Numbered from the stretch's first letter, positions 40,850 through 47,097 are shown. The stretch: DNA of 64,000 nucleotides from Candidatus Latescibacterota bacterium (GCA_965208125.1 OZ242320.1:2368001-2432000), one strand, 5' to 3'. Notes: generated by a model not told the origin, from the letters alone. Program-made: numbers and translations.

Positions 40850-40928
<79 letters not shown>

Positions 40929-40935
40929 AAATCAG

Positions 40936-40970
40936 AAAGCCCGTCAATCGGTGGTGATCGACGGGCTTTT
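40936..40970 (+). terminator. tRNA terminator (AGCCCGTYRAT family)
   Basis: aaagcccgtcaatc-ggtggt-gatcgacgggctttt. Confidence 0.8.
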
Positions 40971-40973
40971 GTT

Positions 40974-41053
40974 TGAAGTTGCCCCGTTTTGATGGAGTAT
41001 TTAGGGCTTGGGTTCAAGCCTGCGAAGGTACCCGCCGAAACGGATCAAGTCCA
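40974..41053. mobile_element. Miniature element E1 (type A) with IS3-like terminal inverted repeats, 80 bp
   Basis: TGAAGTTGCCCCGTTTTGATGGAGTA ... GTACCCGCCGAAACGGATCAAGTCCA. Confidence 0.7.
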
Positions 41054-41164
41054 AAATTAGGATCAGAAAATGACCAAGAAAAACCCAAAAGAAAAAAGAG
41101 ACCCATTAGTGCAGTCTCTGGTGTGGTAATTGTTGCCAAAATAGCGACTCGACAAATCAAAAAA

Positions 41165-41710
41165 TCATCTCAGAAGTAATTTTACTTCTGGATACTTTCC
41201 TTTTTCCCTCCAAAGCACATTGTTCTGGTGCGACATTAGAATTAACTCCTGTCCATCCGAAAATATCCAGCTTGATGCAAAATCCCCTCTGTTTATTCCA
41301 TCGCTGGCATGATCAAACTTTATAGTGCTATGTGGTGGACCTATATCTTTTTCAAATACGATGGAGTATTTTTCAAAAACTCCAAAGCATGCGGCCTTTC
41401 CTCTGCACAATAAAAATTCTCCATCGCGTTTTAAATCAGACAATACAATGCCCATAGAAGAATCGTGCAGAAAATATGGCTCTGATGGTTTCTGATATAC
41501 TGGTTTAGTATATTCGGAAGAAGAGGAATCATAAGAGATAGACGAATACCTTTGTGATCTATCAATCCAATAATCCAGAGCAATCAAAACTATTATGCCC
41601 AAGACACATAAAAAACCAAACAACTTCTGTTTCCATTCAACATGATATTGTTTTTCCTTGGTATGGCCCGACTTTTTTCCTTCATTGGAACTTGTATCGC
41701 GCGAACTCAT
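41165..41710 (-). CDS. AT-rich hypothetical single-TM protein
   Basis: 181-aa ORF with TM segment LFGFLCVLGIIVLIAL; RBS AGGA. Confidence 0.65.
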   Translation of the reverse strand: MSSRDTSSNEGKKSGHTKEKQYHVEWKQKLFGFLCVLGIIVLIALDYWIDRSQRYSSISYDSSSSEYTKPVYQKPSEPYFLHDSSMGIVLSDLKRDGEFLLCRGKAACFGVFEKYSIVFEKDIGPPHSTIKFDHASDGINRGDFASSWIFSDGQELILMSHQNNVLWREKGKYPEVKLLLR

Positions 41711-42116
41711 GGGTAGTTTCCTTTGTTTCGCAGATGCAGACCGTGTGCTTTTTCCAAGTGACTTTGGTGAGTCTTACTGGATAAGCACACGATCTTTTAT
41801 TAGTAATGCTATAAAGCTAAATTGTCATAATGATATGTCAAGTTAAATTTGGGTAGTGTCTCAGTTTGAAATTTCAGGGCATATCTGCCTTTAGACTGGA
41901 TAGCCTAAAAACCGCATCTTTGTGCAATGCAGATAGGCTATCAAAAGCAGATTTGATTCTCGCAAGGTCGCTTTTCATTTCCCCATTCTCATCATGTGGT
42001 CCGCCAATTTATTACTCATTTCTGGATATTTGGACTCGCGGTATCTGACACCATCGGCAATTATTTCTGCCACCCGCGCGGCTTATTCTGCCCTCGTTTT
42101 TTGAAGTTCCTTCAGA

Positions 42117-42234
42117 TGAAATTATCCCGCTTGAGTGGATAGTGTAGAAGTTTCAATCCCATCATCCTGTGCCATTGGTTTTTCATTGGTGATGAGTGAT
42201 TTATGATGTTATCCATCAAAATGGGTCAAGTCCA
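42117..42234. mobile_element. Miniature element E2 (type B) with IS3-like terminal inverted repeats, 118 bp
   Basis: TGAAATTATCCCGCTTGAGTGGATAG ... GTTATCCATCAAAATGGGTCAAGTCCA. Confidence 0.65.
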
Positions 42235-42371
42235 ATCAAACAAATACTTGAACATAGTCATAAAAGGCTTTATAGTGCGCGTTTCCTGAAATTGATGGAC
42301 AAACATGATGGTACTCCCTATTCCATACGATTTGAGTTGTTTACCTGAAAATAAAAAAGGAGAAAAATAAA

Positions 42372-43355
42372 ATGGCTGACGTACACTATTTCCCGCGTTA
42401 CACACAACGCGAAAATTTTGTAACCAACAATACCTTGTTGCTGTTCCAGCGATTATACGACTACAATCTGCGAAAATTCGGTAAATTCCTAATGGAACTC
42501 AACGAGGACCTCGATTCGTTTTCAGGTCTTTTGGGATTACACATAAACCAGCAAATAAGAACCGGGAACAGCGTACCGGATGGCTTTATCGTCCAGCATC
42601 CGTTAAAAATTGTTATCGAAACAAAAATACATGAAGGGTTCGACGGATCCCAACTTCGTCGGCACTTGAACACGAACCAGGAACATCCCGATCTGGTCTT
42701 GATGTTGTTAAGCCCTCGGGGAGAACCAAGCGAGAAACTGGTCGCAAGCCTGCGGAATGATAAGGCAAAGATTGTTGTTACTTCATTTCGAGATATAATT
42801 GGTGCTGCCAGGAGGTGTTTATCAGAACACGATGAAGATATGAATGCCCTTGTAGATGATTACGAAGCATTTTGTAGCGAGTCTAAGTTGCTACCTCGGG
42901 ACGATTATACGCTATTCATCCCCCCTTGTGGTGAATCGTATGAGGTGAACGCTCGACTAAAACTCTATTGGTGTCCGGACCACCGAAATATAAGAAAGTC
43001 AAAATATCTGGGTATCTACACCAGTAAAGCAGTGCGGCATATTGGCCGTATAAGGGAGGTGGTCAGTTGCTACTTGAACGAGGATGGAACGCTGAATGTC
43101 ATTGAGGGAGAGCCTAACAGCGACGAGCAAGAGCGAATCAAGATGGCTATGCAAGAAGGAGGGGTTAGCCAAGGTCATAAATTCTTTTTGTGTTCTGAAA
43201 TGGAGGAGACATTTTTTCAGAAGCAGACGAAAGGGGGAATGCAAAGGCATCGCTACTTTGACCTGGGGGCAGATGTGCTTGAGGGAGATGAAAATGTACC
43301 GAATAGTCTTGCGAAACTCGCGGAGGAGCTCAAGAAAATCCCTTGGCCATTCTGA
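42372..43355 (+). CDS. Hypothetical protein with PD-(D/E)xK nuclease-like N-terminus
   Basis: QRENFVTN..SVPDGFI..IVIETK; strong RBS AAGGAG; A-rich composition unlike the flanking core genes. Confidence 0.65.
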   Translation: MADVHYFPRYTQRENFVTNNTLLLFQRLYDYNLRKFGKFLMELNEDLDSFSGLLGLHINQQIRTGNSVPDGFIVQHPLKIVIETKIHEGFDGSQLRRHLNTNQEHPDLVLMLLSPRGEPSEKLVASLRNDKAKIVVTSFRDIIGAARRCLSEHDEDMNALVDDYEAFCSESKLLPRDDYTLFIPPCGESYEVNARLKLYWCPDHRNIRKSKYLGIYTSKAVRHIGRIREVVSCYLNEDGTLNVIEGEPNSDEQERIKMAMQEGGVSQGHKFFLCSEMEETFFQKQTKGGMQRHRYFDLGADVLEGDENVPNSLAKLAEELKKIPWPF

Positions 43356-43399
43356 TACAGGAAGTTCAGGTTAGTTGCGACTTTTAAGGAGGTATAAAT

Positions 43400-43543
43400 A
43401 TGATTGAGAACTGCGAAAAGTATAAAAGATTCATCAAAGCAGGTGGTGTTGGCTCAAGAGACAAAGTTGCTGATTCAATAAAGTCTTATGTGTCATATTT
43501 GAACAGCGTGTCAAGGCATTTGGATGGAGTTCCCCCGCTTTGA
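43400..43543 (+). pseudogene. ORF truncated by element E3
   Basis: RBS AAGGAGG + ATG 43400; frame open for 41 codons (MIENCEKYKRFIK..SRHL), then enters E3 at 43525 and stops. Confidence 0.6.
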
Positions 43544-43616
43544 TGGAGTATTTAGGGCTTGGATTGATGCAGCTTTCTAACTACTGGTAAGTACCCACCG
43601 AAAAGGGGCAACTCCA
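43525..43616. mobile_element. Miniature element E3 (type A) with IS3-like terminal inverted repeats, 92 bp
   Basis: TGGAGTTCCCCCGCTTTGATGGAGTATTTA ... TAAGTACCCACCGAAAAGGGGCAACTCCA; shares TTTGATGGAGTATTTAGGGCTTGG with E1. Confidence 0.75.
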
Positions 43617-43646
43617 ACTTTGCTCAAGAATAAAATTTGTTGACTT

Positions 43647-43666
43647 TGTTCTTAAATTTGAGAACA
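43647..43666. promoter_or_regulatory. Palindromic operator upstream of the TA operon
   Basis: TGTTCTTAAA-TTTGAGAACA directly after TTGACT. Confidence 0.6.
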
Positions 43667-43711
43667 TTAAAATAAATATAGAAAGCTTCACTCAGGAAAT
43701 AACGATACTCA

Positions 43712-44089
43712 ATGCCGGAAATCCAGGTCATATTCTATCAAGAAACGAATGGAAACGTTCCAGTTCTCGCATGGCTTGATACACTCCTTCCTAAAGTCAA
43801 AGCCAAATGCATCGTGAAAATTGAACGACTCCAAAAATTAGGTCATGAACTTCGGAGGCCCGAATCTGATTACTTGAGAGACGACATCTATGAGCTTCGC
43901 ATCGCTTATCGCGGCATTCAATATCGGCTTCTTTACTTTTTTTGGGGACGTAATGCCACTGTGATCTCACACGGTATTGTTAAAGAACAGCGCGTGCCTT
44001 CCACAGAAATTAACCTCGCAATTCAAAGAAAAAGAAACTTTGAACAGAACCCCGGGCGACACACCTATTCGCTGGAGAATGATTCATGA
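43712..44089 (+). CDS. Type II TA toxin, RelE/HigB (Gp49-like) family
   Basis: LRRPESDYLRDDIYELR..YRLLYFF..HGIVK; toxin-first order overlapping an HTH gene. Confidence 0.85.
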   Translation: MPEIQVIFYQETNGNVPVLAWLDTLLPKVKAKCIVKIERLQKLGHELRRPESDYLRDDIYELRIAYRGIQYRLLYFFWGRNATVISHGIVKEQRVPSTEINLAIQRKRNFEQNPGRHTYSLENDS

Positions 44090-44409
44090 AAACACAAAAG
44101 ACTACCGATGCCGTAGCGATTCTTCACAAACGCTATGTTGAAGGCGACCAGGAAATGGAAGCCCTGTTAAAAAGAGAAAGAATACACGCCGAAGTTGCTG
44201 CCCAACTCTACCAGATCAGAATCGAGTCTGGACTGTCCCAACGAGAATTGGCAAAAAAGGTTGGGACATCGGCATCTGTCATCTGCAGACTTGAAAATGC
44301 AGACTACGAAGGACACTCACTTGCTATGCTACGGCGAATCGCCGCCGCTTTACATAAACAGATTCGAATTTCTTTTCATCCTCTGCAAGAAACAGTATCG
44401 TCTCGCTAA
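44086..44409 (+). CDS. XRE-family HTH antitoxin (HigA-like)
   Basis: GLSQRELAKKVGTSASVICRLE..SLAMLRRIAAAL. Confidence 0.88.
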   Translation: MKTQKTTDAVAILHKRYVEGDQEMEALLKRERIHAEVAAQLYQIRIESGLSQRELAKKVGTSASVICRLENADYEGHSLAMLRRIAAALHKQIRISFHPLQETVSSR

Positions 44410-44414
44410 ATATC

Positions 44415-44489
44415 TGGACTTGACTCGTTTTAGTGGATAGTGCGGAAAGCACTCTTTATGCTGTTATACACCAAAACGAGTCGAGTCTA
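44415..44489. mobile_element. Miniature element E4 (type B) with IS3-like terminal inverted repeats, 75 bp
   Basis: TGGACTTGACTCGTTTTAGTGGATAG ... CTGTTATACACCAAAACGAGTCGAGTCTA; shares GTGGATAGTG and TTTATGnTGTTAT with E2. Confidence 0.7.
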
Positions 44490-44519
44490 AGGTTAAAGAG
44501 ATATTATCGTCTATTTTAC

Positions 44520-46403
44520 TCACCTATCCAGTCCTGATGGCGCAACCTGCTCAGGACAGGCACTTTTTGCTCCTCGACCATTTTCCAATGGCAATGTCAG
44601 TCCAAATGTCGATCCCTTGCCCTGTTCGCTTTCGACATAGACCCGCTCGCCGTGTGCATCCATGATGTGCCGAACAATGGACAAGCCCAGGCCCGTCCCG
44701 CCCATTGCCCGTGAGCGCCCTTTATCGACCCGGTAAAATCGCTCAAAAATGCGATCCATATCTGACAGTGGAACCCCAATACCCGTGTCCTTTACTTCAA
44801 GTGCAATACGGCGCGTGCGGGTCTGATTTTCAATTCCCTCGGGTCTATTGCGACGGTTTTCTCGATCATTTTCCACAGGCTTGAAATCTCGCGTCTGAAT
44901 CCAGATTTTACCCTCTTCAGGCGTGTATTTTACGGCGTTGTCGAGCAAATTGAACAATGCCTGTTCAATGAGCTTGTGATCGCACTGCACCTGCACATTT
45001 TTTTTCGTGTTTATCTCGATGGTAAGGTTTTTTTCTTTTGCCAGTGGGCGTATTTGTCCAACGACGGAATTGATCATCTCATGTAGGGGATAAACGCCTG
45101 TCTCAAGAGGTAGCGCGCCGGATTCTATACGCGACAAATCCAGAATATCTTCTACCAGATTGTGCAAGCGATCCGCATGGGTGTTGATCATTTTTACGAA
45201 TCGCTGTGAGGCTTCCCGGTCGTCTAAGGCGCCGTCTGCCAGCGTGGATGCACATCCTTTAATGGTTGTAAGCGGGGTGCGCAATTCATGGGAAACATTG
45301 GCGACAAAATCTTTGCGAATGCGCTCCAGACGGCGCAATTCCGTGATGTCGTAAAAAATAGTTACAGAACCCGCGATATGATCATCTTGCAAAATAGGTG
45401 CAATCTGTACATCGAAATGGCGTTCTCGGTCGTCTGAGCGGATGAGATCTAAAAATACCGCTTGTCCGGTTTTCAGGGTTTGATCAATTGCATTTTGCAC
45501 ATCCCGATGGCGCACAAGCTCAATGGGCATGCGCCCTTCAATGGCGTCAGACACCCCAAATAGCTTTTCAAATGTCTGATTGCCCATCAGGATGCGCCCA
45601 CTCTGGTCCGTGACCAGAATGGCTTCTGTAATGCTCGTCAAGACGGCTTCTAAACGCGATTTTTCAAGTGTGATTTGTCCGATGTGCGTCTGGACCTGCC
45701 GACGCATGTCGTCTAATGCTGTGCCCAAATCGCGCAATTCTCGCGTGGATCTAACGCGGAGTGTGGGGTGTTTTAATCGTCCCGAAGCAATGTTTTGGAC
45801 GAACCAGATGGCATCTAAAATCGGACGCGAGATATATCGCGAGGTGGCATAAGCCAATAACAGGGCGAGGCATAATCCCAGTATGGATACTATCCATATC
45901 GCCTGTGAAATCAATTGTTTTATATGCGCCATCTCGCGCAAGGGCAGGGCCAATCTCAGGACATAATGTCCATCGCCAATTTCAGGTACTGCCGTTGCGA
46001 CATATAATATTTCGGTATCCAGTGTGTTGCTATAACGCAAGCTACTTCCCCGCCCCTGTTGACGTGCCGCGCTGATTTCTGGATGATCGGTGTGATTCTC
46101 CAGAGCGCTCAGATCGGATGGATCGGTTTCCGAATCGGCCAATACGCGTCCCTGGCTGTTGATCAGCGTTGCACGCACGCCAAAACGCAATCCCACTTCG
46201 TTGATAAGTGGAATGAGTCTCTCGTCGGTATTTGCCACCTCGCTGAGATGCACGCGGGCAAAACGCACCTCGCGCAAAAGTCTCTGCTCGAGATGAGAAA
46301 CCCAAAAGTCGCGTATGGCGCGATCCAGATATAGATGTGCAGATGCCAGTACCAGTACCAGTACAGAAAGACAGGCGAGCATCCATTTCCAGTGCAAACG
46401 CAT
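44520..46403 (-). CDS. phoR: PhoR-like membrane sensor histidine kinase
   Basis: Two TMs, HAMP, PAS, DFVANVSHELRTPLT, FERFYRVDKGRSR; start ATG 46403 right after the phoB-like stop. Confidence 0.8.
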   Translation of the reverse strand: MRLHWKWMLACLSVLVLVLASAHLYLDRAIRDFWVSHLEQRLLREVRFARVHLSEVANTDERLIPLINEVGLRFGVRATLINSQGRVLADSETDPSDLSALENHTDHPEISAARQQGRGSSLRYSNTLDTEILYVATAVPEIGDGHYVLRLALPLREMAHIKQLISQAIWIVSILGLCLALLLAYATSRYISRPILDAIWFVQNIASGRLKHPTLRVRSTRELRDLGTALDDMRRQVQTHIGQITLEKSRLEAVLTSITEAILVTDQSGRILMGNQTFEKLFGVSDAIEGRMPIELVRHRDVQNAIDQTLKTGQAVFLDLIRSDDRERHFDVQIAPILQDDHIAGSVTIFYDITELRRLERIRKDFVANVSHELRTPLTTIKGCASTLADGALDDREASQRFVKMINTHADRLHNLVEDILDLSRIESGALPLETGVYPLHEMINSVVGQIRPLAKEKNLTIEINTKKNVQVQCDHKLIEQALFNLLDNAVKYTPEEGKIWIQTRDFKPVENDRENRRNRPEGIENQTRTRRIALEVKDTGIGVPLSDMDRIFERFYRVDKGRSRAMGGTGLGLSIVRHIMDAHGERVYVESEQGKGSTFGLTLPLENGRGAKSACPEQVAPSGLDR

Positions 46404-46404
46404 T

Positions 46405-47097
46405 CTATGCTCTTTCTCGACGGAAGCGATAGCCCACGCCCCGCACGGTTTCAATCCATTCGCCTGACTCACCGAGTTTTTCGCGCAACCGCCTGATGTG
46501 TGTATCGACCGTGCGCCCATAGCCGCTGTATTCATACCCCCATACTGTGTCGAGTAAGTCGTCGCGCGTTTGCACGCGCCCGCGGCGTTCGATCAGGGTC
46601 AGGAGCAACTTAAATTCCGTGCCCGTCAATTCCAATGGGTCACCGTCTAACAGAGCCTGATGTGCGGCTTTATCGATAGATATCGGTCCCGTATGTAGCC
46701 AGGCATCAGTGGTCGATTGCGAACTGTCCTGACTGCGCCGCAGAATCGCCTGCGCCCGCAAGACGAGTTCGCGCGGGGAAAAGGGTTTGACAACGTAGTC
46801 ATCGGCTCCTAATTCCAATCCCACAATGCGATCTACTTCCTCTTTGCGCGCGGTCAACATCAAGATGGGTATGTGACGGGTTCGAGCATCTTGTTTTAAT
46901 TGCCGGCACATATCCAGTCCGTCGATGCCCGGCAGCATCAGGTCCAGTATGATCAAATCTGGCAGAACCTCCTGAACGCTCTGGAGAGCACGCTCGGCAT
47001 CTTCTGCTGTTTCAACATCTAACCCAGCCTGATCGAGGTTGTAGCGCACCATTTCCAAAATATCAGGTTCGTCTTCAACCACCAGAATTTTGTTCAT
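46405..47097 (-). CDS. phoB: PhoB/OmpR-family response regulator
   Basis: ILVVEDE, LDLMLPG, GADDYVVKPFSPREL, RTVDTHIRRLREKL, TVRGVGYRF. Confidence 0.8.
   Translation of the reverse strand: MNKILVVEDEPDILEMVRYNLDQAGLDVETAEDAERALQSVQEVLPDLIILDLMLPGIDGLDMCRQLKQDARTRHIPILMLTARKEEVDRIVGLELGADDYVVKPFSPRELVLRAQAILRRSQDSSQSTTDAWLHTGPISIDKAAHQALLDGDPLELTGTEFKLLLTLIERRGRVQTRDDLLDTVWGYEYSGYGRTVDTHIRRLREKLGESGEWIETVRGVGYRFRRERA

Follow-up and report, generated by a model that had tools for sequence, protein, structure and literature searches.

The 3' end of a tRNA-Pro gene in a Candidatus Latescibacterota bacterium (GCA_965208125.1 OZ242320.1:2368001-2432000, a stretch of 64,000 nucleotides referred to here as the window, which belongs to a single 5.75-Mb contig of this genome, G000) is followed by an islet in which four short repeated elements, E1 to E4, separate three gene modules. 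This arrangement raises the question of whether the elements built the array or have another part in its history. The initial annotation took the locus for a cassette array, delimited by MITEs (miniature transposable elements with inverted repeats) of the IS3 family of insertion sequences (IS) and assembled by a transposase acting in trans. Comparison with the genomes of 20 congeners, cited below by number, and with metagenome contigs retains the IS3-family derivation of the elements but does not bear out the assembly. The locus is probably a decayed tRNA-integrated islet into which MITEs have moved, and these now act as breakpoints for rearrangement.

Derivation of the four elements from IS3-family insertion sequences

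Reading of the sequence located all four elements where they had been described, each with imperfect terminal inverted repeats of 22-25 nt (~25 bp in the initial annotation) and with TG...CA tips, CA being replaced by TA in E4. The motif TTTGATGGAGTATTTAGGGCTTGG is present in both E1 and E3, and GTGGATAGTG and TTTATGnTGTTAT are present in both E2 and E4. In a repeat search the right arms of E1 to E4 formed one four-copy family of 31 nt (65-77% identity to the reference copy), E1 and E3 paired at 84% over 56 nt, and the left arms of E2 and E4 paired at 73% over 33 nt. The two arms within an element were complementary at 87% over 23 nt in E4 and 77% over 22 nt in E3 by the same search and, counted by hand, at about 68% in E1 and about 64% in E2. 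A 17-nt arm consensus, allowing up to three mismatches, has five matches in the window, all inside E1-E4, where 0.12 are expected (100 shuffles). Only E4 folds much better as single-stranded DNA than shuffled sequence (z of -7.4, against -1.7 for E1, -0.7 for E2 and -1.1 for E3). The elements are 75-118 bp long, share one orientation and are 49-72% identical to one another, and no open reading frame (ORF) in the island has a transposase domain. The division into two types, E1 and E3 versus E2 and E4, stands, but their A-B-A-B order is not significant, because two of the six possible orders of four such elements alternate.

The parental elements were found by searching the genome with a profile built from the eight arms in the islet, which gave 38 matches with E < 1. 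One pair of arms, 1371 bp apart (genome 2167030-2168400), encloses an orfA and a -1-shifted orfB, which match the NCBIfam model 'IS3 family transposase' (positions 1-85, 69-235 and 237-369 of 369) and the Pfam families HTH_Tnp_1, HTH_21 and rve (DDE). E1 aligns to the first 19 and last 53 nt of this insertion sequence (IS-A), and E3 to the first 19 and last 76 nt, E3 also retaining positions 127-159, which reach the ribosome-binding site of orfA. For E2 the alignment is to a second type (IS-B), about 70% identical to the first, and covers 80 nt at its right end and about 25 nt at its left, and the match of E4 to the ends of this second type is less clear than that of E2. What deletion left of the IS is ~20-35 nt at the left end and 50-80 nt at the right. 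Since their ends match those of autonomous insertion sequences with IS3-type orfA and orfB, E1 to E4 are internal-deletion MITEs of two related IS3-family insertion sequences, as had been proposed. Two more pairs of arms in the genome, 524 and 537 bp, are larger deletion derivatives, since all that they enclose is either orfA or the 3' end of orfB. A reading of the arms as repetitive extragenic palindromes with their associated tyrosine transposases (REP/RAYT), prompted by arm pairs 470-600 bp apart, was rejected, the ORFs between them being fragments of IS3 orfA and orfB and not Y1 transposases.

Intact copies in congeners further bear out this derivation. Near-full-length IS-A copies number 20, spread over 11 of the 20 other genomes, and intact copies in sister species measure 1253-1256 bp (1256 bp for IS-A and 1253 bp for IS-B), including ten 1253-bp IS-B copies in G015 with identical ends and a 317-codon open frame. 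Copies resembling E2 are present in at least 11 congeners (79-98% identity). In G000 itself the sole near-complete copy of this IS clade, that at 2167030-2168400, is interrupted in its left end by a palindromic insert of 108 bp and carries an orfB frameshifted by 1 nt, and the genome search found no intact orfB or transposase of the clade elsewhere. Because the only near-complete copy has a frameshifted orfB, the array appears to be inert in this genome now.

The 108-bp palindrome (GATGCTGTTGCCGAATT...AATTCGGCAACAGCATC; genome 2167048-2167155, L037:1049-1156) lies between two GTTTTG repeats in the IS left end, and is also found free-standing in several congeners (89-94% identity), inside the G015 copy of E1 and within an element of 165 bp (genome 1798037). 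Possibly these copies represent a third family of miniature elements, which targets the IS arm. Outside the window, three near-identical hairpins, GGGTCAAGTCCAGA(CCAGA)TAGGACTTAACCG (G000:C1:4782237, 4800345 and 4803405), each lie ~10 nt upstream of an AAGGAG that resembles a ribosome-binding site. Their likeness to IS tips could be due to chance or descent, and they could be leader or regulatory elements.

The tRNA-Pro islet and its breakpoints

Homology to 12 congeners stops at 40927, directly after the tRNA gene. The site is empty in 12 of the 20 congeners, in which the flanks are 42-90 bp apart, and the empty joint 40927->44589 is also found in one metagenome contig, so that the borders of the islet (40928-44589) follow from this comparison, which covered the whole islet. 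In three of the 12 empty sites the junctions were read, and run from the tRNA end CGACCAA through another terminator to the last codons of the phoR-like gene. The G+C content of the islet, 41.9% against 51.2% in the genome, agrees with its earlier description as an AT-rich island. The elements had also been said to bracket the whole island; E1 and E4 do lie near its ends, but it exceeds them on both sides, by the 'tRNA terminator' hairpin to the left of E1 and by 100 bp to the right of E4. An Rfam scan gave the tRNA as its sole match, and a Pfam-type domain scan of the island proteins found no transposase and no integrase domain, in agreement with the initial annotation.

Other DNA occupies the same site in G014, G015, G003 and G005, and on a rearranged flank in G004. 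The left end, consisting of the hairpin and a 30-nt tail (TGTTTGTACTCGAGGTGAGTAGAGGGGTATAA), is common to all five and to G000. The right end, a truncated ParB-HTH-like ORF, is common to G000, G015 and G014; the remnant in G000 (44490-44588) is 81% identical to G015 L017:4001-4192, with similar C-terminal peptides, and the G015 ORF matches Pfam HTH_ParB. In G015 and G014 this ORF is followed by GGGCGACCAA and then by the untouched original spacer, and the 7-bp direct repeat CGACCAA of the tRNA end recurs at the far border. The junctions can be set out as an att-like quartet, with attB as CCCCGACCAA joined to TAGATTT, attL as CCCCGACCAT joined to AAAATAAGAAAGCCCG, attR as GGGCGACCAA joined to TAGATTT (G015 and G014), and a contiguous attP-like arrangement beside other copies of the ParB-like gene, where the hairpin end lies directly upstream of the gene. 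Because of the 7-bp repeat of the tRNA end and the conserved islet ends, the islet appears to descend from a circular element that integrated site-specifically at the tRNA 3' end. In G000 a later deletion took the repeat and the old terminator, together with what else there was of the ParB-like ORF and the final two codons of phoR.

Several observations agree with the elements acting as joints. E1 and E4 occupy the same places in G015 (with E4 identical at 69 of 75 nt, and the G015 E1 holding the 108-bp insert), and the two genomes are homologous as far as the right tip of E1 and again from the left tip of E4 onwards. The DNA between is wholly different, comprising 3361 bp with three modules here and ~2.8 kb with a sigma-54 response regulator in G015. 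The HigBA-like unit of module 3 (798 bp) recurs in five other genomes, among 31 of the family searched, at 93-98% identity, which is above the 87-95% of the flanks. IS tips abut this unit on both sides in G013 and G020 and only on the right in G003, 3 nt further in, the left break in G003 falling 12 nt inside the unit beside a recombinase-like fragment (read by eye). A second cluster of arms in G000 lies at the borders of blocks whose counterparts are scattered over the genomes of relatives, and metagenome contigs branch exactly at 41053 and 43525. Metagenome depth is 103-122x over the HigBA unit versus 2-18x over modules 1 and 2, indicating that in those communities it is carried by different strains of greater abundance.

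Comparison of the interval across relatives thus placed breakpoints at element tips, as the initial annotation had expected, but did not recover tidy cassettes delimited by the elements. E3 truncates a 90-codon gene, the PD-(D/E)xK-like gene of module 2 has no elements around it and different breakpoints in G020, and no IS ends accompany HigBA in G007 and G019. The joints are rearrangement scars at IS tips, not tidy cassette borders.

In the history that best fits these observations, a small integrative islet would have entered at the 3' end of tRNA-Pro(CGG), a hypervariable hot spot of the genus, and MITEs would have been mobilised into it by IS3 transposases, either in an ancestor or in a donor. 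As short dispersed repeats with reactive ends, these may then have become joints for the exchange, deletion and addition of DNA, by recombination between copies or by adjacent rearrangement mediated by IS ends. The HigBA pair, itself often relocated, would have arrived flanked by IS ends, and a later deletion would have fused the right end of the islet to phoR. The use of MITEs as joints would explain why the cargo differs from that of G015 over precisely the stretch bounded by the inner tips of E1 and E4, why E3 abuts half a gene, and the deletion that fused the right end to phoR. Signs of decay are the truncated 90-codon gene, the fusion of phoR to the ParB-like remnant and the lack of an intact orfB of the clade.

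Several observations weigh against this history. Elements that are 49-72% identical over 75-118 bp are a poor substrate for RecA-type recombination, and the clustering of arms in the islet (eight of the 38 genome matches) is inflated because the profile was made from those same eight arms. No 3-bp target duplication was read at any of E1 to E4, whose own transposition is presumed. In G007 and G019 the HigBA ends are alike within 3 nt on the left without flanking IS ends, and MITE-based exchange does not explain them. Scans of the G000, G014 and G015 islets found no integrase at the site, the right-hand 7-bp repeat is deleted in G000, whose islet has no repeat of the tRNA 3' end at up to six mismatches in 23 nt, and the features that suggest site-specific integration are the 7-bp repeat and the conserved ends. 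A degenerate MITE to the right of HigBA in G019 was considered and rejected, its alignment scores lying within the range of shuffled sequence. The DNA inserted with HigBA in G019 also includes a 197-bp piece of a leucine-rich-repeat gene (L015:1731-1927), of which every genome searched has dozens of copies at 72-81% identity, and which is a repeated protein domain, not a mobile element.

Assembly of the array by a transposase, with directly oriented MITE pairs acting as composite non-autonomous transposons and OrfAB pasting the units in trans, is doubtful, although a number of observations agree with it. E1 to E4 share their orientation, active-looking IS copies exist in the genus, and the cargo replacement between G000 and G015 is exact to the tips. 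The HigBA unit is bounded in G000, G013 and G020 by inward-facing IS tips, like the inner ends of flanking copies. Miniature elements derived from Tn3 have been shown experimentally to mobilise intervening DNA (PMC4133298). However, E1 and E4 lie at the same places in G015, which implies that the cargo moved and its frame stayed, the last gene of module 2 is cut in half, and the PD-(D/E)xK-like gene of G020 and the HigBA of G007 and G019 occur, respectively, without nearby elements and without any. This genome also has no intact transposase. HigBA recurs elsewhere only with truncated inner arms, whereas a composite transposon would be expected to recur with the same pair of elements around its cargo.

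The absence of target duplications, which the initial annotation had also noted, extends from single elements to the pairs E1-E2, E2-E3, E3-E4, E1-E4, E2-E4 and E1-E3, none of which is surrounded by a 3-bp duplication. An ATC that adjoins E2 on its right and E4 on its left was set aside as a 1-in-64 event among about ten comparisons. This absence is weak evidence either way, because only five of 16 full-length IS copies with pairable ends have a 3-bp duplication (nine further IS loci gave no end pair and were left unscored). The IS-B copies of G015 (L061-L070) have one in only two of ten cases, which suggests that copies often recombine with one another or that transposition leaves no duplication. 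Abutted tip-to-tip junctions were absent from all 21 genomes with the pattern used, a looser search giving unrelated hairpins only, and no abutted or circular junction joining element ends was found among the metagenome contigs of four runs, parts of the locus that these contigs did not cover not being counted as evidence. One contig joint, 41099->42348, which skips 1248 nt, was disregarded, as it comes from a contig of depth 2 with 21 nt on one side. Sequencing runs that matched by small shares (0.12-0.17) bear sponge or marine metagenome labels, from which nothing further was concluded.

It is improbable that the MITEs are bystanders that merely accumulated in AT-rich intergenic DNA of the islet and had no part in its rearrangement. 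Such accumulation agrees with the position of the elements in non-coding gaps (except E3), with the 42% G+C of the islet and with HigBA, in G007 and G019, keeping its ends although no IS arms are there. Non-autonomous elements of another family have been reported to prefer AT-rich targets (PMC4133298). It would nevertheless require coincidence for the tip-exact swap of cargo with G015, for the gene cut at the tip of E3 whose other half is missing, and for the arms at block boundaries elsewhere in the genome.

There is little chance that paired, facing IS3-MITE tips form a transposase-dependent docking site for small units, making the locus an integron-like array without an integrase. The footprints that such a site might leave are the near-identical ends of HigBA, abutted in three other genomes by differing IS-end variants, and again the tip-exact swap of cargo with G015. 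If this were true, IS ends would provide a second, integrase-free route to cassette arrays.

It is very improbable that E1 to E4 serve a dedicated cassette system as its site-specific recombination sites, attC-like or pdif-like, and resemble IS ends only secondarily. Their length of 75-118 bp, imperfect hairpins, intergenic position and toxin-antitoxin cassette recall the attC arrays of chromosomal integrons. However, the arms are the ends of insertion sequences with IS3 orfA and orfB, a truncated gene stands among the modules and no integrase is present at the locus. The boxes of the attC consensus, RYYYAAC...GTTRRRY, are also misplaced, the left arm having GTTTT and the right one AAAAC (by eye), and the attC reading was rejected on the identity of the arms and the position of these boxes. 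An assembly artefact, in which repeats were collapsed or chimerically joined in this metagenome-assembled genome, is barely tenable, since although closely related strains coexist in the metagenome at much higher depth, a separate contig of 3547 nt, possibly from the same sample as the window, covers 41013-44559 with no differences, and E1 and E4 lie at the same places in G015.

Gene content of the islet

The genes and elements of the islet are set out in Table 1. The module 1 protein matched no family in Pfam, NCBIfam, PADLOC or PHROGs. The larger protein of module 2 is probably a PD-(D/E)xK nuclease, judging from a D...ExK motif read by eye and from the few of its homologues (152 at E <= 0.001) that are labelled 'PD-(D/E)XK nuclease superfamily' or 'Restriction endonuclease' at source; it had no Pfam match, and PADLOC and PHROGs gave one sub-threshold match for the module (E 0.0094, 13 bits). 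The truncated ORF noted earlier in this module is indeed a 90-codon gene broken at codon 41, whose full-length relatives have a SAM-like domain (PF02899) and whose remaining half was not found in the sequence beyond E3. Module 3 fits its earlier assignment, its domains and gene order indicating a putative HigBA-type type II toxin-antitoxin pair.

Table 1. Features of the tRNA-Pro islet and its flanks (window coordinates; IRL and IRR, left and right inverted repeats)
Feature	Position	Strand	Description
tRNA-Pro (anticodon CGG)	40850-40926	+	ARAGORN; Rfam tRNA, 67.6 bits; 3' end is the islet insertion point
Variable islet	40928-44589	.	3662 bp, 41.9% G+C; replaces the 42-90-bp spacer and terminator of congeners
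Terminator-like hairpin	40936-40969	.	Conserved left end of the islet family
E1	40974-41053	-	80-bp MITE from IS-A; IRR side left, IRL side right
Module 1	41165-41710	-	181-residue protein with one hydrophobic segment; no family match
E2	42117-42234	-	118-bp MITE from IS-B (second IS type); left arm degenerate
Module 2a	42372-43355	+	327-residue protein of a widespread uncharacterised family; 152 homologues
Module 2b	43400-43524	+	First 41 of 90 codons; cut at the E3 left tip
E3	43525-43616	-	92-bp MITE from IS-A
Module 3	43617-44414	+	HigBA-like toxin-antitoxin unit; discrete 798-bp unit
higB-like gene	43712-44089	+	Pfam PF05973, 6.3e-18 (Gp49/HigB-like)
HTH-XRE antitoxin gene	44086-44409	+	HTH_3 (PF01381), 2.1e-8; 4-nt overlap with the toxin gene
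E4	44415-44489	-	75-bp MITE with IS-B-like ends; near-perfect hairpin, TA terminus
ParB-HTH-like ORF remnant (3' end)	44490-44588	-	Right end conserved in the islet family; in-frame fusion with the phoR-like gene
PhoR-like sensor kinase	44520-46535	-	Last 2 codons replaced by 23 island-derived codons

The PhoR-like kinase, which ends in ...TLPEA in relatives, carries in the window a tail of 23 residues (LENGRGAKSACPEQVAPSGLDR-type; 44520-44588) from the 3' end of the ParB-like ORF of the islet, an in-frame fusion made by a deletion. The hairpin at the left end of the islet belongs to a genome-wide terminator-like family (AAGCCCGT...ACGGGCTT) with more than ten close copies (also L011 and L019). 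In G013 and G004 it is flipped, because its loop is the exact reverse complement while its flanks keep their orientation. Four congeners each have 3-7 genomic copies of the ParB-HTH-like gene (~170-200 codons; L082-L088; L017:4105-4640), and this query found no copy in G000. Upstream of each copy, on the opposite strand, GGGC[GTA]ACCA and a terminator resemble the 3' end of a pseudo-tRNA, and one copy lies directly after tRNA-Pro(TGG).

At the same tRNA-Pro site, the islet of G014 extends over 11.8 kb interspersed with these IS-end elements, and carries a HaeIII-type restriction enzyme and methylase, a second methylase pair, an IS256-type transposase and DUF4238 (L018:2680-4342 and 7840-9802); this hot spot collects defence genes. 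In G003 a 546-codon ORF beside HigBA (L014:148-1785), with tyrosine-recombinase motifs in its N-terminal half (by eye) and an ATPase-like C-terminal half, is a candidate recombinase for these islets.

Comparison with known systems

The locus shows, base by base, the turnover of a tRNA-linked hot spot in an uncultured lineage. The islet is a landing pad, in which miniature elements derived from IS3 mark the joints at which toxin-antitoxin, nuclease and restriction-modification genes are swapped among sister species. Recognising these repeats, which break assemblies and mimic regulatory hairpins, is useful for annotation and helps to trace the travel of defence and addiction modules, and the foreign tail of 23 residues on a phosphate-sensor-like kinase has a possible physiological meaning. 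A keyword search of the literature returned no report of arrays of IS3-derived MITEs, whether in tRNA islets or from sponge symbionts, which is not proof of absence.

As in other IS3-family insertion sequences and their MITEs, E1 to E4 are dispersed and have TG...CA-tipped imperfect repeats of ~25 nt, identical to those of an insertion sequence with orfA, a -1-shifted orfB and a DDE (rve) domain. Unlike them, this locus has no 3-4-bp target duplication and no working transposase, and interleaves two parental types. Arrays bounded by IS26, including pseudo-compound transposons, also place modules between directly oriented copies of one IS family with tip-exact borders; these involve full IS copies, a working transposase and a targeted conservative route, whereas the present elements are miniature, of the IS3 family and inert. 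Modules in pdif arrays lie between 28-bp XerC-spacer-XerD sites of alternating orientation, while the present elements are IS ends of 75-118 bp in a single orientation. The locus resembles islets that target tRNA genes in its insertion at a tRNA 3' end, its far-border repeat (in G015 and G014), its conserved ends, its low G+C content and its defence and toxin-antitoxin cargo, and differs from them in that the islets here have no integrase gene, a repeat of only 7 bp and, in this genome, a deleted far border.

[quoted passage not shown] (2014; PMC4133298) mobilise intervening DNA and build mosaic non-autonomous transposons, and in the portion of that article available they likewise comprise miniature elements with transposon ends that flank modules, including toxin-antitoxin genes on related transposons. 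They differ from the present elements in family (Tn3 and not IS3), in their 38-bp repeats and 5-6-bp duplications, where none are present here, and in that their mobility is experimental, while the present locus is known from sequence. In class 1 integrons of Acinetobacter and Enterobacter (reviewed in PMC9771954), the same pair of MITEs flanks cargo that varies among strains, in differing genomic contexts, as one pair of MITEs here frames a locus with differing internal cargo. In those integrons the cargo is exchanged by the integron integrase at attC and attI, unlike this locus, which has no such recombinase or site. The locus is a well-documented case of a familiar genomic patchwork, not a new cassette system.

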